Source: a virus. Taken from it: 64,000 bases of DNA. The stretch lies in IMG/VR virus record IMGVR_UViG_3300017770_000005, positions 12,051-76,050 of that record; one strand, 5' to 3'. This document shows, in pieces, positions 10,562 to 58,055 of this stretch. The position numbers were made by a program, and so were the translations under genes. The notes below the pieces were generated by a model. The model searched no databases, was not told where the DNA came from, and saw nothing but the letters and a program-made list of their open reading frames with translations. Numbering within the stretch: position 1 is the first letter of the stretch; each line of letters opens with the position of its first letter.

Positions 10562-13500
10562 TTGGATTACTGGGGAGTTCAATTACAAGAGCAGTTGGTG
10601 GTCAACTAGCAAAAGGTGCTGCAAAAAAAGCACTTGGTGGTAAAAATAAAAAACAATCTCAAATTGTAAAAAGTCCAACCCAAGGTCAAGGACAAGGAAA
10701 AGGTGGTGCGATTGCAATAAGACCAAAGTCTGTACTTATACCAGCATCAACTATTCCTGCAAGAAATAATAAAACAGTATCTGGATCATCAAAGTCTGGT
10801 CCAGGAACACTCGAACGTATTGATAAAGAAGTTCTTGAAATTAGAAACTTACTTGGCAAGTCAATAAAAATAGAGAAACAAGATGCAACTACCAAGAAAA
10901 AATTATTTGAAAAAGAATTAAGGCAGTCTAAAGAGAACAAACTAGAAAAAAAATCTAAGATTGGTTCTGGACTTGGTGGACCAGGACTTTCAAAAATTCT
11001 TCCCAGTGGTGGAATTATTGATGCTATTCAAAACTTTATATTCAGTGTTATTGGTGGTAAAATATTAATATTTTTATTTGAAAACAGAGAAGCAGTATTT
11101 AATATTGTAAAAGGTCTTGCTGCTGCCACAGAATTTATCCTAGATCTAGGAGGAAAAATTCTAAATGGAATTATATCTCTAGTTGATGGTGCCTATGATA
11201 TTACCGACGCAATATCAAAAGAGATTGAAGCTGTTGGTGGAGAGGATGCTGGAAAAGAATATGGTAAGTTCACAGAAAAATTCAACAAGTTTGTTAACAT
11301 TGCAATGATCTTGGCAATGTCTGGAGTTCCTCTTGGTGGTATGGGATCTCCTGCAGCAAAACCTGGAGCAAAACCTGGAGTAAAACCTCAAAGTAATCTA
11401 TCACCTGGTGGAAAACCAGGACCAGGATCAAATAAATTTGGTGGTGCAAATAATAAGACTACGGAATATATGAATCGTAACCGCACGGCAAAATATTTTG
11501 AGAGAAAGTATGGTAATAATGCTGCTAGAGAATTTTCTAATGCACATAACAATGCTATAAACTCTGGCATGAAGCCAAAAGACGCATTAGCAGATGCAAA
11601 GAAACGTACAGAAAGGTTGATAAGAAAGAACAAGGGTCGTTTCAAAGTTCAATCTGCAGGACCTGGTTTGAGAGGTGGACCTGGAGGACAAGTAGCATCT
11701 GGAAGAGCAGGTGGTGTTTTTAGAAGAGGACTTAGAAATTCTGGAAGTCGTCTTCAGACCAGAATTATGGGTCGTGGTGCAAGACTTGGTTTGAATAGAA
11801 CAGGAGCAAGACTTGCAAGTAAATTTGCCAGAGTTGGTGCTGGACCTCTAGGTAGAATACCAATTGTTGGTCCACTTATGGTTGGTATTGCTTCCTATAT
11901 GGAAGATGGTAAACTTGATAGAGCATTGTTTAAGGTAGGTGGTTCTGCTATTGGTGGTTTCCTTGGTTCATTTATCCCAATTCCATTCCTAGGAACACTC
12001 CTCGGAACACTTGCTGGTGAATATGTTGGTGACTTATTTTATGAACTACTGCGTGGTGGTGGTGCATCTGCGGTTGGAAAGAGACTGAAAAATGATATTT
12101 TAAAAGTTGTAAATGGAGCTAAATTATTTTCTGAGTGGATGATGAAGGGTATTTCTAATATCCAAAAACAAGATGGACCAGAACTTGATTTATCATGGGT
12201 TCCCTTCTCAGATTTTGGTAAGATAAGACTTGGTGGTTGGGCTACTTTATTAAATCCTTTAGAGTTGAATCTAGTTAAAAAGTTTGATGTTTTAAGAAAA
12301 TCATTCTTCTCAGAATCGAATAATAATCCTGATAGTTCAACAACTTATACTGAAGGTGGAAGTAACGATGGAAGAGGAAATAGTGATGCTGAGGGTGAAG
12401 AAAGTAGGAGTGGTGGTGGTGCAAGACCAACTGTAACTGGTGGTGGTGGTAGACGTTCAATTCCTTCTGGGAATGGAGCAATTACCAAAGTTCCATTTGG
12501 TGATCCAAACTTTAGTCCAGGTACAACTAGAAATAAGTCCACACAAATTTATCTACATTGGACTGGTGGAAATTATAATGATACTAGTGCAAGTTATGGA
12601 TATCATACTATTTTTGCAGGTGACGGCAGTATTCATAGAAATAAAGGATATGATGTTACTGGAATGCATACTGAAGGAAAGAACTCTAATTCAGTAGGAC
12701 TATCACTTGCTGCTATGGGTGGAGAAGGTGTAGATTGGGATAGATTTGGGTCATACCCAGTTACTCAGGAACAATTAAATGCAATGACTGCAGAAGCAGC
12801 AAGACTTGCAATCAAATGGGGGTGGAGTGAAGGTGATATTGATAAGAATATTTGGACTCATGCCGAAGCAGGTTCTGGTTTAGATCCAAGAGGATTGAGT
12901 GGACACCTAGACAAGAATGGAGATGGAGCTCCAGATAATTATGGTCCGAGAATGTGGGGTGGATCTGTAGCAAGATGGGACCTATTGAATGTCACTGAAG
13001 GTGCAGAAATGGGCAGTGGAGGTAGTGTTGCCCGTGACATGGTTAAGAAACATTTTAGAAACTTTAAGCAAGAAGAAACTCAAAGAGGAAAAAGTGATGC
13101 TGAAGGTCTAGAAGCAGCAGCACCATCAGGATCAGGTGATAGAAAGATTCCAAATTCATCTGGACTAGAAAAGTGGCTCAATAATACTGAGAGAGGTAGT
13201 GGAGAAGAATATAATTTGAAAGGAGTTGGAAATTATGTTAGAGGGACAATGTTCGGAGGAGCACCTTATGACAAGTTATTCCTATATCCTGGTGCTAAGG
13301 AATTTAAAGATAAGAATGGACAAGTAAAAGGCATAACAAGAATTAGATCATATCTAGAAAGAAACTATCCAAATTTGTTGTCTGATAAAATTATGGATGA
13401 AAAAGGAAGGACCCAGAAAGGTGCGGGTCTTCCTGGTAATCAAAGTCTTTCCCTTAAAGAAAGGAAAGCTGCTTTAGATGCGAAACAAGAGGTAAAAACA

Positions 13501-51097: not shown

Positions 51098-51653
51098 ATC
51101 ATTTATTCTTCGCAATTTTTTATTCAAAGATGATGTAAAAGCACTCAATCAATGGACTCTAGATAATTGTCATCTAGATTTTTTTGAAGATGCCTGCATG
51201 GATCCAGATAATCATGGAACACGATTCACAACTCGATTCCCTAATGAAGAGATAGCACCTAATTTAAACTATCCAAAGTCTGCACATACTGTACGGCAAA
51301 GAATAATCAATTATTTTCATCTAGAAGGTTACAAAAGTCCACCATCCTACAGTCATGGAATTGTAAATGGCATTGGATATGATGGTGGCAGAATAGAGAA
51401 TCATATTGACCCTACATATTATCCAAATACTAAAACAGTTCACTTTAATGCTATTACTCAACAAGCACATAAGGGTGGACATACGATCATTGGTGGTGTA
51501 GAATATACAGATATAAATTCTACAGATCTTTTGATATATCAAGTCTCTGAGATTCACCATGAAGTAACACCAACACAAGGTGATACTGCCAGAATACTAT
51601 GGGTTTTTGGATTTTGTTTAGATGATGAAAAAGTACAGGAGATATTCTTATGA
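51090..51653 (+). CDS. 2OG-Fe(II) oxygenase
   Basis: HID...GG...HHEVTP....RILWVFGF (HxD..H..R). Confidence 0.8.
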   Translation: MSKSFILRNFLFKDDVKALNQWTLDNCHLDFFEDACMDPDNHGTRFTTRFPNEEIAPNLNYPKSAHTVRQRIINYFHLEGYKSPPSYSHGIVNGIGYDGGRIENHIDPTYYPNTKTVHFNAITQQAHKGGHTIIGGVEYTDINSTDLLIYQVSEIHHEVTPTQGDTARILWVFGFCLDDEKVQEIFL

Positions 51654-52387
51654 AAGATTTTGCCAACGATGAATCATTATTTGAAACTAATGATTTTTCT
51701 AATATGAATATCATTGAGTTTTGTGATGGTGATAAGGTTTCCAATTTTTATTGGATGGATAATTTTTATAAAAGACCATACGATGTCTATGAATATCTTT
51801 TATCTGTTGAACCACCATTATGGAAAATGGGAGAAGATTGGGAACTTGGCAGAGGTACACTCAACACAAAAAACTTTGAGGATCGTAGACATATGATGAA
51901 GCATCCTGGTATGTCTTCACTATACAGTAAGATCTCGGGTATTTGTGACCAAGAATCCGCAGATGTGGATGAAATTGTAACTAATTTTTCAAGATTCTCA
52001 CGAATTGATGATAACCCATACGAAACTCATTACTGGTGGCCTCACCATGACGGAGGATACAATGGTATATGTTACTTAAGCACGAATGATGAAATTGGAA
52101 CTAACTTATATAAACCATTGGTAACAGATAATCCAGACTTATTACCTCTAGATGAAAATGATGGTGTTAGAGATGAACATGCAATACCATGGACACCAAA
52201 AAACTTATGGGAAACTGTAGTTAGTTTTCGTTCAAAATTCAATAGATTTGCAATGTTTGAAGGATCATATTATTATCACAGTATGAACTTAACTGGTGAA
52301 CATTATTTTGGTGATCACTATAGTGATGCCGAATACAGAATTAATCAAGTATTTTTTATGATGAATGAAACTGAGGAACAAGATTGA
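51650..52387 (+). CDS. 2OG-Fe(II) oxygenase-like protein (DUF6445-like)
   Basis: MDNFYKRP, PHHD, GICYL, GTNLY, KFNRFAMF..YYHS, RINQVFF. Confidence 0.75.
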   Translation: MKDFANDESLFETNDFSNMNIIEFCDGDKVSNFYWMDNFYKRPYDVYEYLLSVEPPLWKMGEDWELGRGTLNTKNFEDRRHMMKHPGMSSLYSKISGICDQESADVDEIVTNFSRFSRIDDNPYETHYWWPHHDGGYNGICYLSTNDEIGTNLYKPLVTDNPDLLPLDENDGVRDEHAIPWTPKNLWETVVSFRSKFNRFAMFEGSYYYHSMNLTGEHYFGDHYSDAEYRINQVFFMMNETEEQD

Positions 52388-52388
52388 C

Positions 52389-53045
52389 ATGCACAGATTC
52401 AGAGATGAAATTACTCCAAACGATGATAATTTCTTAGAGATACCTATTAGTGACAAGAATCGTGAAGATCTTTTCATTACACCATTGTATACCTTTACTC
52501 TAGACATTGATAACGGACCTCTGATTAGAGAATGTTTAGATTTGCGGGAAAGATTTCCCAATGGAGTAAAAAAATCCAATTTTGGTGAAGGTTGGCAGAG
52601 TCAAGTCTATGAATTGCCCACAATCAAAAGAACAACAACTCCTGCTATTCAAAATTTAGCAAGAAATGCTATCGATCTGACAAATGAAATATTGGAAGAC
52701 TTTGGTGCAACTTATAGAGTAGATGATAATCAAATTGGATGGTGGATGAATATTAACAAGGGAATGGGATATAATGTTCATCACACTCATCCTGGATGTA
52801 CTGTTATTGGACTTTATTATCCAAAAATTCCTAGTGACCTAAATGAACAGGAAGGTAAACTCACTCTAATCAGAACTGATCCATCAAATCATAATGCTGC
52901 GTTTGCTGATGTTGCCAATAATTGTGAATGGGTAATTGAACCTGAGGAAAATGTTTTTTACTTGATGCCATCTACAGTTGCACATTATGTGACACCACAC
53001 TTTAGTGAAGAGGAGAGAATATCTATTGCATTTAATATTGGATAA
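52389..53045 (+). CDS. 2OG-Fe(II) oxygenase-like protein (TIGR02466-like)
   Basis: KSNFGEGWQS, WMNIN..GYNVHHTHP, PSTVAHYVTP....RISIAFN. Confidence 0.85.
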   Translation: MHRFRDEITPNDDNFLEIPISDKNREDLFITPLYTFTLDIDNGPLIRECLDLRERFPNGVKKSNFGEGWQSQVYELPTIKRTTTPAIQNLARNAIDLTNEILEDFGATYRVDDNQIGWWMNINKGMGYNVHHTHPGCTVIGLYYPKIPSDLNEQEGKLTLIRTDPSNHNAAFADVANNCEWVIEPEENVFYLMPSTVAHYVTPHFSEEERISIAFNIG

Positions 53046-53082
53046 ATAATACACGTTATCTGTTGTTAGTAATTGGTATAAT

Positions 53083-53619
53083 ATGTCTATTCTGCAAACG
53101 AGTGGTATTCAATTTGGACTTGATAATACCGTTCTTAATTCTAAATATGGCATTATTCCTCAGAATAGTGTTGCAGTATTTTATCAAGCATCGGCACCTA
53201 GTGGATGGTCTCAAGTAACTACTCATAATAATAAAGCACTTAGAGTTGTATCTGGAACTGGTGGTGGGTTCGGTTCTGGTGGATCTAATGGTCCTGGTGG
53301 ACAACCATTTTCTACTATATTTCCTACATCAACACGTCCAATTAGTGGTACTGTAACTTCTGCTGGTTCAGTAGGAAACACAACATTAACAGTGCAGCAA
53401 ATTCCTGGACATACTCATAATGCAGGTTCTCAGGTTAATGTAAGTCCTGGATCTCCTAGTGTTGGAGGACGTGCCGTAAATACTTCAGCACCAGCAACAT
53501 CTCCAACGGGTGGAGGTAACTCACATACTCACCCATTTGTTGGTGCCTCATCACCTTATAGTGGAAGTATTGACCTTAGAGTTAAATATATTGATGTTAT
53601 CATCTGTCGTTTTAGTTGA
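53083..53619 (+). CDS. Small tail-collar/short-fibre-like protein
   Basis: FYQASAPSGW..ALRVVSGTGGG, TLTVQQIPGHTH, TGGGNSHTHPF, YIDVIIC. Confidence 0.75.
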   Translation: MSILQTSGIQFGLDNTVLNSKYGIIPQNSVAVFYQASAPSGWSQVTTHNNKALRVVSGTGGGFGSGGSNGPGGQPFSTIFPTSTRPISGTVTSAGSVGNTTLTVQQIPGHTHNAGSQVNVSPGSPSVGGRAVNTSAPATSPTGGGNSHTHPFVGASSPYSGSIDLRVKYIDVIICRFS

Positions 53620-53629
53620 GGTATAATAT

Positions 53630-54892
53630 ATGTCTATTTTAAGAGCAGACGGGATCCAGTTCGGGAATGGTACTCAATTAAATACGTTTTACGGTATTGT
53701 TCCACAATCATCTACGATGCTGTTTTATCAATCAGCAGCACCAACTGGGTGGACTAAAGAAACATCAGCAAACGATCAAGCACTTAGAGTTGTAGATGGA
53801 ACGGGTGGAGGATCTTCTGGACAGAATAGTTTCAGCACAACATTTGATGATGGTGGTGCTACTTCAGTTGTAACTTCAACCCTATTGGGTAGTATTGGAC
53901 CAACAACACTAACAACACAACAAATTCCAGCACATACCCATAATACTGGATCAAATCCAAATTCCTATAGATCATCTGGTGGTTCTTCACCATTTAGAAC
54001 AACTAATAGGCAACCACGTGGATATAATATTAGAGCAACAACTAGAACACAAATTAATAATCGTGTTCAGATTAATTTTAGACAACCTAGACAGGTAAGA
54101 CAACCTCGTAACTATAGACAACCACGAAGGCAGAGAGTTCCACTCAGAAACAGACAACCAAGAAACTTTAGAGTAAGATATCCTACACGTTCTAGAAGAC
54201 CATTTAGTTTTAGAGTTCCTGTTCCATTCCGTGTTCCTGTAAGATCACGAAGACCAATATCTCAACGAAATCCTGGTGGAAGATGGAGAAACTCTATTGG
54301 TCAATCTTGGAGAGCAGGTGGAAGAAATAATGATAGAACACCAAGAAGAAGATGGGGTCGGAGAAGAAGAAATGATAGGATTCCAAGAAGAGCAGATAGA
54401 AGACAACCTAGAGTAAGTTGGTGGAGACAGAGAAGACAGTTTAGAAGACCTGTATCTTTTAGACAGAGAAGATCTTTCCGTCAACCTCGTAACTTTAGAC
54501 AACCCAGAAATGCAAGACAGAGGAGATCATTTAGGAGGAGGCAACCAAGATCATTCAGAGTGAGGTATTCATTCAGGCAGAGAAGATCTTTCCGAGTGAA
54601 TATTCCGTTCAGAGTAGCAGTTCCTCAGAGAAATCCTTCATCTTTTAGACAACCAAGAACATATCGTACACCTCAAAGATATCCACAGACTACAAGTGTG
54701 AGGGTAACTCAAAGGGTTCTAACTCCTGGTGGTACTATTAGGAAGAATAATACTCAAGGACCAGCAACAAGATCAACTGGTGGTGGTCAATCACATACTC
54801 ATCCATTTACTGGTAGTGAAGTTACTTTCTCTGCTGCACTATCACCACTTAGAGTTCAATACATTGATGTCATTACTTGCAGTTTAGATTAA
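53630..54892 (+). CDS. Paralogous small fibre-like protein with a ~250-aa arginine-rich insertion
   Basis: N- and C-termini align with 53083..53619; the insert lies between QIPAHTH and GGGQSHTHPF. Confidence 0.8.
   Translation: MSILRADGIQFGNGTQLNTFYGIVPQSSTMLFYQSAAPTGWTKETSANDQALRVVDGTGGGSSGQNSFSTTFDDGGATSVVTSTLLGSIGPTTLTTQQIPAHTHNTGSNPNSYRSSGGSSPFRTTNRQPRGYNIRATTRTQINNRVQINFRQPRQVRQPRNYRQPRRQRVPLRNRQPRNFRVRYPTRSRRPFSFRVPVPFRVPVRSRRPISQRNPGGRWRNSIGQSWRAGGRNNDRTPRRRWGRRRRNDRIPRRADRRQPRVSWWRQRRQFRRPVSFRQRRSFRQPRNFRQPRNARQRRSFRRRQPRSFRVRYSFRQRRSFRVNIPFRVAVPQRNPSSFRQPRTYRTPQRYPQTTSVRVTQRVLTPGGTIRKNNTQGPATRSTGGGQSHTHPFTGSEVTFSAALSPLRVQYIDVITCSLD
53996..54742 (+). repeat. Arg-rich degenerate peptide repeats (RQPRxx / RQRRSF)
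   Basis: 10 RQPR and 4 RQRR units by manual count; AGACAACC-type DNA repeats. Confidence 0.85.
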
Positions 54893-54930
54893 CATCGTGC
54901 TATAATAAATAATACACTGAATCCCTTGTT

Positions 54931-55317
54931 ATGGCAAAACAGACTGGTAAATGGTGTCCACTAATTCGTAAGGATTGTGTAGAACATAAATGTGCATGGT
55001 ATACGCATATTGCGGGTGTAGATCCTAATACTGGAAATCCAGTAGATCATTGGTCTTGTGCCATTCAATGGATGCCAATGCTAATGATTGAAAATAGTCA
55101 GCAACAACGTTCTACAAGTTCTGCTGTTGAGTCTTTCCGTAATGAAATGACTAAAGCACACGAAACTAATCAGAATATGTTGGATGCTGTCGGTAACATG
55201 TATCTTGATATGTGTGAAGATCAGGGTGTCAATGTTTCTGAATACATTGAACAGATTGATGGCATAGATAATGAAGAAGAAAACTTACTACCCGAATCCG
55301 AAGAGGAGAAAAAATGA
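54931..55317 (+). CDS. Cys-containing conserved phage protein that accompanies small-fibre cassettes
   Basis: CPLIRKDC...CAW...CAIQWMPMLMIENSQQQRST..AVESFRNEM; acidic C-terminal tail. Confidence 0.7.
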   Translation: MAKQTGKWCPLIRKDCVEHKCAWYTHIAGVDPNTGNPVDHWSCAIQWMPMLMIENSQQQRSTSSAVESFRNEMTKAHETNQNMLDAVGNMYLDMCEDQGVNVSEYIEQIDGIDNEEENLLPESEEEKK

Positions 55318-56648
55318 AAATTTCTATTATCCCAGAAGATAAAAAAATTATCGTAGATGGTAAAACCGTGGATCTTGAGGATAATGCACCTTGGGATTTT
55401 GATGATGAACCCATCCATGCAATTCAGTGGAAGGATGATAGAGGTGAATTGGAATATGAAGATATTATTGGTGAAGAACCAGCACCAAATAAAATTTTTG
55501 GTGTAGATGAATTTGATACTATTGTTCAACCATATCTAGATTACTTTAATACATTTTTGGATTCATACGAGAAATCAGAACTTGAGTCTGCATTACAAGA
55601 AGAGCAAAATATTGCTGATCAGATTGAAGAATTGAATATTGATAAACTTGAGAAAGAAGCACAACTTGTTATCATTGAAGACCTCAAGAGACAGAATAGA
55701 GAACTTCGTGATGAGAGAGAAGATTTGTATGAGGAAAAGAGTAAGTCAGATCAAGCAGCAGTATATGACAAGCAAGTTGCTTTAATTGAACTCGAACGTG
55801 AAAAAGCAGCACGTGAATCTGAAAAGGCAGGTTTAGAATCACAGAAAGCAGATGAGTTTTTTGAGAAGAAGTCTTTAGAACTTGCTAAAAAGTATGATGA
55901 ACTCTTTCATGATTTTGAAAAGGAAAAAGATGCTTTTGTAGAAGAAAGGAAAGAGTATCAAGAATTGCTGCAAATGGAACGTGATAAGATTGAGAGGGAA
56001 GATGATCTTTCTATGAAGCAACTTGCTCTCGAAGATAAAGAACGTGAAACAAGAGAGGAAATGATTGCCAAGGTTAGGTTGATCGAAGAAGAACAACTTG
56101 ACATTGCTAAGGCAGAACTTGAATTGCAGAAACAGGCAGTTGATATTATCCGTTTGGAGAATCTTGAAGTTCAAGAACAAATCAATGCTGCTAGAGATGT
56201 AATTAAAGTAAATCTTGAAAAGCAGGAAGATGAGTTTGAGAGGAGAAAGGATCAAGAACTAGAAATTATCATGAGATCTCATGAAGATCTAATGAATAAA
56301 ATGTCTCAGGAAGAGGCATTTGATGAACTAGATGATGCTGTAGAACGTGAATTTGATAAAGCAGAAGTTGAGTATAAAGAATTTCAAAGAGAAAAACTCA
56401 AGCAATCTAATAGCAGTATTCATGCTGCTGGTCAAGAGAAAATCATTAGAGATAGTATTGAACGTGAAGAAATTCAGGGTGGTGCTGACAAATCTATCGA
56501 AGATATCCTAACACTTATGGACGGTATTGACCCAGAAGAACTTTATACTGTACTAACTGATGATGAGAGAGGAGAAAATTCTTTCCCTGTAGATAAGGCA
56601 GTTAAGTGGTTTGCTGCCCTAAAAGAAGTTCTAGATAAAAATGATTGA
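55314..56648 (+). CDS. Fibre-chaperone-like N-terminal domain with a long acidic coiled coil
   Basis: ISIIPEDKKIIVDG...IHAIQW...GELEY N-terminal domain; about 350 aa of E/K/D/L heptad-like sequence. Confidence 0.65.
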   Translation: MKISIIPEDKKIIVDGKTVDLEDNAPWDFDDEPIHAIQWKDDRGELEYEDIIGEEPAPNKIFGVDEFDTIVQPYLDYFNTFLDSYEKSELESALQEEQNIADQIEELNIDKLEKEAQLVIIEDLKRQNRELRDEREDLYEEKSKSDQAAVYDKQVALIELEREKAARESEKAGLESQKADEFFEKKSLELAKKYDELFHDFEKEKDAFVEERKEYQELLQMERDKIEREDDLSMKQLALEDKERETREEMIAKVRLIEEEQLDIAKAELELQKQAVDIIRLENLEVQEQINAARDVIKVNLEKQEDEFERRKDQELEIIMRSHEDLMNKMSQEEAFDELDDAVEREFDKAEVEYKEFQREKLKQSNSSIHAAGQEKIIRDSIEREEIQGGADKSIEDILTLMDGIDPEELYTVLTDDERGENSFPVDKAVKWFAALKEVLDKND

Positions 56649-56657
56649 TATATTGAA

Positions 56658-58055
56658 ATGAATAATGAATTGTTGAAGAACAACTATATCGTTGTTCCTA
56701 ATTTTATCGATCCAGATCATGCCTCACGATTAGAAAAAGAGTTCTTTGTTACTGATGAAATCTTTGATTTTAGTGGTGATGAACAGGCACCAAACTCATC
56801 AGCAGTATATGATTATCTCCCAGCATTAGAACTTCTGGCAAACAAAACTTCGGAAGTTTCTAAACTAATTGGTGAAACTGTTCTCCCAACTTATGTTTAT
56901 TCTAGAATATATCGAAACGGAAGTATTCTTCATAGACACACTGATCGTCCTGGATGTGAAATATCATTAACATTGCACTTAGGTAGTGATAAACCTTGGG
57001 CAATTTGGATTGAAACACCAGAAGGAAAGAATAGATCAGTTAACTTGAATCCTGGTGATGCTATGCTATACTTGGGATGTATTGCTCCACATTGGAGAGA
57101 TCAATTTGAGGGTGAAGAGTACACTCAATTTTTCTTACATTATGTAAGAAGTCGTGGTATGTGTAGTCCTGCATACTTTGATAAAAACAAATTTAGAGAC
57201 ATTGACACTGAAGACTTATTACGGGAGTACAAACAAATGGGAAAGTTTACTAATGTAAATGAGATGACAATACTTCCAAAGAAGTATAGAGAAAAACAAG
57301 AAAGAAACGATGATAATAAGGTTGAATTTATACTAGATTCTAATAACGATACTGATACTTTCTTTGACTTTGACGATGTAGTCATTGCTAATGATAAGTA
57401 TAAAAAGTTCTTGACTAAAAAAGATACTCCAGAATTGATTAATGAACCTAAGGTAGAGAATAAAGCAAAACCATCGGGCAAATTGTCATCTAAACCTATT
57501 GCTGATTTTGTATGGCATGGTCAAGAAGTTGTTGATCCTGAACTATGTGATAAAATCCTAGATGAGTATGCAAATACAAACTATTGGGAAGCAACATTAA
57601 CTGGAAGTGGTCATGATCCAGATGCACGAAGGTGTGAACAAATTTGTATTTCTGAGCAATCAATCATTGCTGAAGATAATTCTGACACTAGGAAACAGTT
57701 AGATGATCAAATGTTTGAGGTTGTTCAAAACTTGATCGGACTTTATCAAGAAGCACATCCAGAGTTTGAACTAGAGATTCAAGAGGATAGTGGTTATGAA
57801 CTGCTCAAATATGAAGAGGGTGACTTTTATATTGAGCATACAGATTCGTTCAAAGAACAACCTAGAGCATTAACAGTGATTGTGTCAATGAATAATGCAT
57901 ATGAAGGTGGAGAAGTTGCTTTATTCAATCGTGAACTAGTATATAAACTTGATGTTGGTGATGTAATTATGTTCCCATCTAATTTTATGTACCCACATGA
58001 AATTATGCCAGTTACTCAAGGAACAAGATTCTCTATCATTACTTGGGTTGTATGA
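56658..58055 (+). CDS. Two-domain 2OG-Fe(II) oxygenase (prolyl-4-hydroxylase-like)
   Basis: Domain 1: HTDRPGCEIS...HWR...QFFLHY; domain 2: HTD...YEGGE...MFPSNFMYPHEI.PV..GTRFSIITW. Confidence 0.88.
   Translation: MNNELLKNNYIVVPNFIDPDHASRLEKEFFVTDEIFDFSGDEQAPNSSAVYDYLPALELLANKTSEVSKLIGETVLPTYVYSRIYRNGSILHRHTDRPGCEISLTLHLGSDKPWAIWIETPEGKNRSVNLNPGDAMLYLGCIAPHWRDQFEGEEYTQFFLHYVRSRGMCSPAYFDKNKFRDIDTEDLLREYKQMGKFTNVNEMTILPKKYREKQERNDDNKVEFILDSNNDTDTFFDFDDVVIANDKYKKFLTKKDTPELINEPKVENKAKPSGKLSSKPIADFVWHGQEVVDPELCDKILDEYANTNYWEATLTGSGHDPDARRCEQICISEQSIIAEDNSDTRKQLDDQMFEVVQNLIGLYQEAHPEFELEIQEDSGYELLKYEEGDFYIEHTDSFKEQPRALTVIVSMNNAYEGGEVALFNRELVYKLDVGDVIMFPSNFMYPHEIMPVTQGTRFSIITWVV

Follow-up and report, generated by a model that had tools for sequence, protein, structure and literature searches.

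The needle gene and its insert

In this study, which was based on a window of 64,000 nucleotides of viral DNA (positions 12,051 to 76,050 of the 76-kb IMG/VR virus record IMGVR_UViG_3300017770_000005; all coordinates below are counted from the first letter of this whole stretch), we analysed a fibre gene whose product carries a long, arginine-rich insert. The gene, which is located at 53630..54892 on the plus strand and is referred to here as the needle gene, encodes 420 amino acids (aa) followed by a stop codon; it is supported by its open reading frame (ORF), by an orthologue in the phage S-SCSM1 and by the ratio of nonsynonymous to synonymous substitution rates (dN/dS). It is preceded by a small paralogue of 178 aa (53083..53619, plus strand), the first gene of a conserved tandem pair, which consists of a fibre-tip domain with a 35-aa loop between its two HxH motifs. 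BLASTP aligned aa 1-111 of the needle protein with aa 1-119 of the small paralogue (52% identity, E 1e-26) and aa 371-417 with aa 130-175 (57% identity, E 1e-14), and no BLASTP alignment between the paralogues was found in the region that separates these two ends. The loop that connects the HxH motifs is 284 aa long in the needle protein versus 35 aa in the small paralogue, a difference of 249 aa. Moreover, both fibre genes begin with an identical leader, GGTATAATAT(AT)G, at 53067-53085 and 53619-53632, which is a trace of the fibre-gene duplication.

Along the needle protein, the N-terminal half of the base (tip) domain takes up aa 1-122 (53630..53995) and holds the first HxH motif, H102/H104, at nt 53933-53941. 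The insert follows at 53996-54742 (aa 123-371) and can be divided into the outgoing arm of a predicted hexapeptide-repeat hairpin (aa 123-238, 53996..54343), a predicted tip with the sequence RRRWGRRRR and its turn at W242-G243 (aa 239-247, 54344..54370), and the return arm together with its junction with the base (aa 248-371, 54371..54742). The C-terminal part of the base domain (aa 372-420, 54743..54889) contains the second HxH motif, H389/H391, at nt 54794-54802 and ends with the YIDVI-C motif. All of these segments lie on the plus strand.

The 249 residues of the insert include 80 R, 27 P, 25 Q, 17 N, 17 V, 16 S, 15 F, 5 W and 3 D, while K, E and H are all absent, and the share of Arg is thus 32%. 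Because the fraction K/(K+R) equals 0.53 in the other long ORFs of the window, the occurrence of no Lys among 80 basic residues has a P of ~3e-27. AGA accounts for 55 of the 80 Arg codons, and the region has a single open frame, the other five being closed or encoding unrelated low-complexity peptides. The autocorrelation of R, P and the aromatic residues at a period of 6 lies 4-7 standard deviations (SD) over that of 5000 shuffles. Compared as DNA, the repeats show an identity of 60-88% and are thus old and degenerate; their spacings are multiples of 3 nt and often of 18. A preliminary description of this DNA, which was made from its letters, had claimed that the paralogues match at both ends, that the loop is expanded by about 249 aa at 53996-54742, and that the insert contains about 80 Arg, no Lys, no Glu and 3 Asp in RQPR-type units with a duplicated block and a centre rich in Trp and Arg. 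All of this stands: the residue counts proved to be exact, the duplicated block and the Trp/Arg centre (RRRWGRRRR) are both found in the insert, and the unit can be written more generally as the hexad R-Q/V-P-R/x-x-F/Y. On the minus strand, an antisense ORF of 85 aa that is rich in Ser lies inside the insert (54245-54502); it is a by-product, because AGA-rich codons read TCT on the opposite strand, and is not a candidate gene.

In order to place the base domain, the small paralogue was used in an exhaustive HMMER search, which returned 3221 representative clusters. The tip domain of ~150 aa mostly sits at the C terminus of fibre proteins that are longer, and it is marked by the motifs FYQ..AP.GW, ALRVV.G.GGG, TLT..Q.P.H.H, GGG..H.H and YIDVI.C. 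In 65 long forms, H102, H104, H389 and H391 are invariant, and in the short forms (n=51) the invariant residues are H110, H148 and H150, with a conservation of at least 90% for H112. A profile of the 51 short forms matched two structures that each comprise three identical chains, PDB 9QGO, the Photorhabdus Pvc13 fibre (E 1.6e-11), and PDB 9NXK, the tip of gp60 of the Pseudomonas phage Pa223 (E 1e-7). The authors of the Pvc13 work related its C-terminal region to the domains with which short tail fibres bind the host, and the tip of Pa223 gp60 is gp37-like. Similarly, the HHpred analysis of ORF244 and ORF245 by the authors of S-SCSM1 gave gp12 at 99.2-99.3%, gp37 at 99.5% and gp10 at 98.9% (PMC9602691 supplement). 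Judging by its sequence, the base is a member of the gp10/gp12/gp37-type HxH tip family, and the insert occupies the position between the paired HxH motifs of such a tip, as had been proposed at the outset. The general collections were less informative. For both fibre proteins, Pfam gave 0 families at E values up to 1 and NCBIfam gave 0 families, while in PHROGs the fibre proteins had just a weak match to the 'tail protein' phrog_5795 (E 0.001); the models of these three collections miss the fibre proteins because the clade is too diverged. A language-model resemblance of the insert to the Phage_fiber repeat PF03335 (0.82, ESM Atlas) was below the level at which it would count, and a Pfam hmmscan gave no match to it. 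In the tree of the base domain, the end branches of the needle genes measure 0.15-0.8 versus 0.04-0.2 for the first-gene paralogues of the same phages; going by these branches, the needle-gene base domain evolves faster than its counterpart. The tree is weakly resolved with respect to a single origin of the needle and a single duplication of the pair.

The closest cultured relative is the Synechococcus phage S-SCSM1 (Kyanoviridae), which shows 80% nucleotide identity over 52900-55400. Its ORF245, with 421 aa, is built in the same way and matches 78 of 85 Arg residues position for position. The Nei-Gojobori dN/dS between the two needle genes was 0.31 in the insert (dS 0.59) and 0.32 and 0.47 in the flanks. 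More than 60 full-length homologues of 411-527 aa were found in a word-indexed search, with identity down to 31%. All 84 homologues with a long loop have a net charge of +35 to +93, hardly any Lys and few acidic residues; the Arg share of their long loops ranges from 12 to 30% across the family and is the highest in the clade of the window. In 26 close relatives, the columns that hold Arg in the needle protein contained 1979 R and 0 K; the replacements were N, Q, S, V and T, and most of the AGA codons are one transition away from AAA. The architecture recurs not only in S-SCSM1 but in more than 20 IMG/VR loci, and near-identical DNA is present in runs of many studies. A 6.8-kb contig (run X5), which covers the whole region with 2 differences, comes from a run from which this DNA may itself stem. 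Parts of both fibre genes, including 54003-54503 inside the insert, are matched by contigs of metatranscriptome libraries from three studies, a result that may reflect DNA carry-over and does not prove transcription. In a tblastn search of a phage collection, the full architecture was found only in S-SCSM1, which is no count of the cultured carriers because the BLAST low-complexity filter probably hides the insert. These comparisons of sequences rule out misassembly and drift for the insert. The preliminary description had named misassembly and the lack of homologues with an Arg-biased insert at this position as grounds for doubt and had argued for selection rather than drift; Arg-biased inserts at the same position turned out to be common, the preference for Arg over Lys is enforced, and the selection argument is borne out by the dN/dS of the insert. 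As a side observation, one contig from a 454 cDNA library (run X16) joins both strands at 54720/54856, which is most likely a library chimera or a hairpin artefact in a repeat-rich stretch.

Fold of the insert

Several lines of evidence point to an ordered structure of the insert. Among 237 members of the family, the length of the loop between the His motifs is bimodal, with 20-100 aa or 275-380 aa and no values between, and in the long-loop class a length of 282-284 aa is held down to ~41% identity. The recurrence of R, P and aromatic residues every 6 residues is a feature of the whole family. In an AlphaFold2 model that was built with 65 homologues, the arms form very long strands that pair with each other (E139-157 and E163-197 with E290-324 and E330-348) with a predicted local distance difference test (pLDDT) of 78-85. 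This value is above the pLDDT of the base domain, whose lower score presumably reflects the need for its oligomer. For the homologue P0070, which is 31% identical and contains 15% Arg, AlphaFold2 paired the strands E127-210 and E359-444 with a pLDDT of 66-76. Moreover, all of the indels in the family fall within positions 188-292 and are balanced between the arms; in the clade of P0070 there is an insertion of 28 residues near 198 and another of 28 at 292, and the sum of these positions is ~490.

The out-and-back register could also be recognised from coevolution. Mutual information with average product correction (MI-APC) was computed for 99 sequences with an effective number (Neff) of 55, and it peaked on the antiparallel diagonal i+j=485 with a mean of 0.119 compared with 0.011 +/- 0.022 for all diagonals (~5 SD). 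The runners-up were the same-parity diagonals 487, 489 and 491, and none of the parallel offsets was prominent in MI-APC. The top coevolving pairs were 139-346, 173-312, 185-300 and 167-318. The midpoint of the register, 242.5, falls on W242-G243 within RRRWGRRRR. When the residues are arranged in this register, the two faces differ markedly. The odd positions hold 45% Arg, 19% Pro, 3% hydrophobic residues and 1% Gln, with 23 R:R and 17 P:S/N pairs, whereas the even positions hold 10% Arg, no Pro, 45% hydrophobic residues and 23% Gln, with F:Q and F:V pairs. Paired Arg columns such as 167/318, 173/312 and 183/302 tend toward joint gain and loss. The Arg density is maximal at the exact centre of the insert in all three clades (near 0.53, mid 0.31 and far 0.43) and is accompanied by a peak of Gly; the densest 12-mer contains 7-8 Arg at the relative position 0.48. 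That the predicted tip would be cationic had been suggested before, and indeed the most cationic part of the insert coincides with its geometric centre.

Taken together with the model, these features indicate that the insert most likely folds into a long, amphipathic beta-hairpin that has an arginine ladder on its outside and ends in a poly-Arg tip. Its arms of ~120 residues would reach ~35-40 nm in the fully extended state. Structure comparisons offered no precedent: Foldseek against the PDB returned long beta-hairpins (the phi29 tail knob and the pores of lysenin and aerolysin) at E values of at least 0.3, none of them significant, and a wide VIA-align search gave no match at Z of at least 2.

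Cassette and possible partner genes

The genomic context was examined at 78 IMG/VR loci. Genes for the tip domain occur as tandem pairs or triplets of ~175-aa genes, a lone copy with an intact cassette was found in 0 of the 78 loci, and it is always the downstream gene of the tandem that bears the long insert. At six loci (L038, L042, L044, L057, L063 and L065) there are three tandem tip-domain genes rather than two, and P0089, P0097 and ~20 further representatives of ~580 aa carry three copies of the domain in one polypeptide. These chains and triplets suggest that three unlike copies can build one tip, as a pseudo-trimer or a heterotrimer, which bears on the number of needles per tip.

All of the needle loci share the same order of genes, and in the window all of these genes lie on the plus strand. 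The first upstream gene (51650..52387) has no match in Pfam or NCBIfam and is labelled an oxygenase only in the S-SCSM1 record, whereas the second (52365..53045) is a confirmed 2-oxoglutarate (2OG)-Fe(II) oxygenase (PF13759). After the small fibre gene and the needle gene come a gene of 128 aa (54931..55317), an acidic helical protein of 444 aa with a net charge of -65 (55314..56648), whose length class and charge track those of the needle, and a 2OG-Fe(II) oxygenase of 465 aa (56658..58055; PF13640 in its C-terminal part), with which the cassette ends. In a comparison that covered the window and the loci L001-L034, L061 and L062, homologues of the two upstream genes were present in every needle locus, and the pair was absent from every short-pair locus with enough upstream sequence; this co-occurrence is perfect, yet phylogenetically confounded. 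The short-pair loci retain the 128-aa gene, again downstream of the fibre genes, the large oxygenase at the cassette end, and an acidic protein of just 144-352 aa. For the 128-aa and the 444-aa proteins, PHROGs, Pfam and NCBIfam gave nothing.

Among the needle loci, the net charges of the needle and of the acidic protein mirror each other (+87/-72, +75/-65 in this window, +45/-47 and +37/-38), and in 20 loci the Spearman coefficient was -0.81. When independent contrasts were taken on a tree of neighbouring genes, from which one locus near-identical to another (zero-length branch) was excluded, r was -0.72 for charge (17 contrasts, p ~7e-4) and 0.74 for length. An N-terminal domain of ~85 aa (IIP.D..I.VDG ... 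IHAIQW ... GE.E) is common to the acidic proteins, whether they are short (144-178 aa), of middle length (258-352 aa) or long (431-493 aa). The acidic proteins of the needle loci add ~280 residues of helix rich in E, K and R as well as a conserved C-terminal segment, FPV[DE]K..WF..LK, which occurs in the long versions only.

With regard to the virion, the S-SCSM1 orthologue of the small paralogue, ORF244, is annotated as a tail fibre and flagged as a virion protein in GenBank, and ORF247, the orthologue of the acidic protein, is without such a flag. The S-SCSM1 virion comprised 45 proteins by mass spectrometry, and the proteomics method text consulted names no protease. In the related phage S-SCSM2R, three short paralogues are annotated 'baseplate protein'. 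The virion proteome of the same phage includes ORF269, a 2OG oxygenase annotated as prolyl 3,4-dihydroxylase (PMC12801897), which may serve as a lead for oxygenases that act on structural proteins.

Comparison with known fibre tips and rival explanations

In T4 gp37, the chain doubles back, and HxH-Fe sites zip the core of the resulting needle of six strands (PMC12609058; PMC11705849). The cyanophage protein resembles the gp37 tip with its collar, needle and head in that both are HxH-bearing fibre tips, here presumably trimeric, and in that the chain runs out and back, the outgoing strands being paired with the returning ones and the distal end serving as the point of contact. This doubling-back topology is found for the insert in the AlphaFold2 models of two homologues, in the symmetric indels and in the coevolution at i+j=485. 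However, the gp37 needle is zipped by seven HxH-Fe sites, whereas the cyanophage needle has no His in the 284 residues between the basal HxH motifs (aa 105-388), and its core-facing positions hold F, Y, V, I and Q. Since the topology is shared and the metal motif along the needle is not, we assigned the base to the gp10/gp12/gp37 tips. The insert would work like the gp37 needle, with a different chemistry, namely a repeat of period 6 in which Arg/Pro is set against aromatic/Gln. Unlike gp37, the cyanophage protein has no globular head, its tip being a poly-Arg turn, and no long upstream shaft, with only ~20 residues before the tip domain. With ~120 residues per arm, its needle appears considerably longer than that of gp37, if the arm lengths of the latter are as we assume.

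The C-terminal heads of T4 gp12 and gp10, Pvc13 and Pa223 gp60 are homologous to the base and have invariant HxH pairs, but the loops between their His motifs comprise tens of residues, unlike the 284 of the needle. S-SCSM1 ORF245, in contrast, is an orthologue in the same cassette, with ORF244, ORF246 and ORF247 as its neighbours, and shares 76% or more of the Arg positions one by one. Its annotation as 'short tail fiber protein' rests solely on its gp12-like ends; the gene table of the paper characterises it by the match to gp12 alone, and the word 'arginine' is absent from the main text. Our literature search on arginine-rich tail fibres of cyanophages yielded no description of such an element. 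For the acidic protein, a further comparison is T4 gp57A, a small, acidic, helical chaperone of gp12, gp34 and gp37, which helps trimeric fibres to fold and is not part of the virion. The likeness is drawn as an analogy of role; at 5-6 times the length of gp57A, the cassette protein differs by its conserved N-terminal domain of ~85 aa and by a charge that changes along with that of the needle.

On balance, we favour the reading that the product of the gene is a small virion fibre-tip protein from a T4-like cyanomyovirus related to S-SCSM1, with a predicted hairpin needle that would contact the host through its positive charge. The distal loop of the HxH tip domain would have been replaced by ~40 hexapeptide repeats that run as one antiparallel beta-hairpin. 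Its face of aromatic, aliphatic and Gln residues, which lacks Pro, would be buried, for which the simplest arrangement would be a trimeric needle of six strands like that of gp37, and the outer face of Arg, Pro, Asn and Ser would bear cross-strand Arg:Arg pairs that form a continuous guanidinium ladder, with a poly-Arg cluster as the turn. The pairing of Arg with Arg in spite of their like charge is established chemistry. A structural role of this kind, with cross-strand guanidinium pairs and cation-pi contacts, agrees with the strict preference for Arg over Lys, as does a bidentate binding of phosphate, sulfate or carboxylate groups. The needle may make the first, largely electrostatic contact with anionic surface polymers of the picocyanobacterial host. 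The acidic helical protein, encoded two genes downstream, could be a charge-matched escort or folding helper, and the needle-specific upstream pair, one member of which is the confirmed 2OG oxygenase, may modify the needle.

A number of observations weigh against this reading. The distal third of the hairpin, aa 206-280, with the centre at 214-273, was modelled by AlphaFold2 with a pLDDT below 50. A prediction of aa 96-396 as a three-copy complex, with a score of 0.00 and an uncertain partner fold, speaks neither for nor against a trimer. Registers shifted by +/-6 and +/-12 are similar in composition, and the phi coefficient for R:R pairs shows a modest excess, with 0.53 at 485 compared with 0.16-0.46 elsewhere; since clade-wide shifts in Arg raise every register, this coupling adds little beyond MI-APC. 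The two AlphaFold2 models and the coevolution signal are not independent, because largely the same alignment underlies them. As regards the acidic partner, the sign test on the charge contrasts was not significant (11:5), the length contrast is dominated by one deep split, and neutral short fibres are also accompanied by acidic proteins (net charge -24 to -65), so that the acidity is not specific to the needle and is older than it. Finally, S-SCSM1 ORF245 has no virion-protein flag in GenBank. If trypsin was used, the insert would have been cut into very short peptides and the remaining ones would be few and long, in which case the absence of ORF245 is uninformative.

The preliminary description had likened the insert to a protamine or a cell-penetrating peptide (CPP). 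In that form the idea can be upheld only in part, because the insert has the look of an ordered repeat of hexapeptides: the very high Arg content and the scarcity of acidic residues were confirmed, and the period of 6, the length, the register, the faces and the AlphaFold2 model speak against an unstructured state. A disordered protamine- or CPP-like polycation at the fibre tip that acts through charge alone is in our view quite unlikely. Such a polycation would agree with 32% Arg without Lys or Glu, with the net positive charge across the family, with the low confidence at which the central 60-70 residues were modelled and with the lack of a structural match in the PDB, but not with the strict periodicity, the matched indels on both arms, a length of the insert that stays within 2 residues down to ~41% identity, the bimodal loops, the register-specific coevolution, a face that is 45% hydrophobic and free of Pro, or an arm pLDDT of ~80. 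More weight can be given to a heterotrimer of paralogues with one or two hairpins per tip, in which the acidic protein would cover the Arg face to give a two-part rod. We regard this as a possibility, albeit a doubtful one. The two or three tandem paralogues, the lack of a lone copy with an intact cassette at 78 viral loci, the ~580-aa chains with three copies of the domain, and the acidic protein whose length class and charge follow those of the needle would all suit it. The solved relatives 9QGO and 9NXK, however, are homotrimers, ORF247 of S-SCSM1 lacks the virion flag, and the hydrophobic face of the hairpin needs burial, for which reason a homotrimer is the simplest solution.

Arg-rich arms bind the genomes of many small viruses, and with a net charge of ~+75 per chain the protein might, by the same token, act on nucleic acid or an internal polyanion, either as a DNA-condensing or ejected internal protein or as a binder of polyphosphate. 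This is improbable to a high degree: by its family the base domain is that of an external fibre tip, ORF244 of S-SCSM1, the orthologue of the small paralogue, is a virion protein annotated as tail fibre, and the Arg residues are arranged as a rod with a distal maximum, unlike those of internal histone-like proteins. Least probable of all, to the point of being negligible, is an artefact in the form of a misassembly, a frame error or a functionless, decaying low-complexity expansion. The repeat-rich and purine-rich sequence and the Ser-rich antisense ORF opposite might raise this suspicion, but a cultured phage carries the gene, as do many independent contigs, it has a single open frame and a dN/dS of 0.31, neither neutral dN/dS nor frequent frameshifts were seen in its relatives, and identical contigs occur in the metatranscriptome libraries of three studies, although the latter do not prove transcription.

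The hairpin needle can also be extended to a bolder proposal, which we consider unlikely as a whole: the cassette would be a three-part device that consists of a metal-free Arg-ladder needle, an acidic escort matched to it in charge and length, and tailoring by the upstream pair, with a tip that inserts into or disrupts the lipopolysaccharide (LPS) layer. Cross-strand stacking of Arg:Arg pairs together with bound anions would then replace the His-Fe zipper of gp37, the tailoring could be, for example, hydroxylation of Arg, Pro or Asn, and the poly-Arg/Trp tip would insert into the LPS layer or disrupt it locally and so start the infection. There is an equally small chance that the cassette, as a three-part device, represents a kind that is not yet described.

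The predicted hairpin needle is of wider relevance because host binding by marine cyanophages is poorly known, yet shapes who infects the main primary producers of the ocean. The needle family is widespread in marine viromes, with more than 80 cluster representatives and runs from many studies. As a new building principle, it would represent a long, thin fibre in which ~40 hexapeptide repeats expose a guanidinium ladder on the outside and metal sites are lacking, and its tolerance of Arg as the only basic residue can be checked against known like-charge guanidinium pairing. Cyanomyovirus genomes hold many orphan 2OG oxygenases, and the needle is a candidate substrate for some of these. Together with the acidic protein, it is also a candidate case in which a fibre and a helper protein matched to it in charge form a pair. 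A possible use is that of a natural, rigid, polycationic nanorod scaffold.

With respect to the control of the fibre genes, the T4 late-promoter consensus TATAAATA was not enriched in the window and was absent near the fibre genes, and a sigma-70 scan performed no better than on shuffles. The sequence GATAAATA is located ~35 nt upstream of the small fibre gene (53041-53048), and it matches NATAAATA, which we take to be a late-promoter form of cyanomyoviruses.

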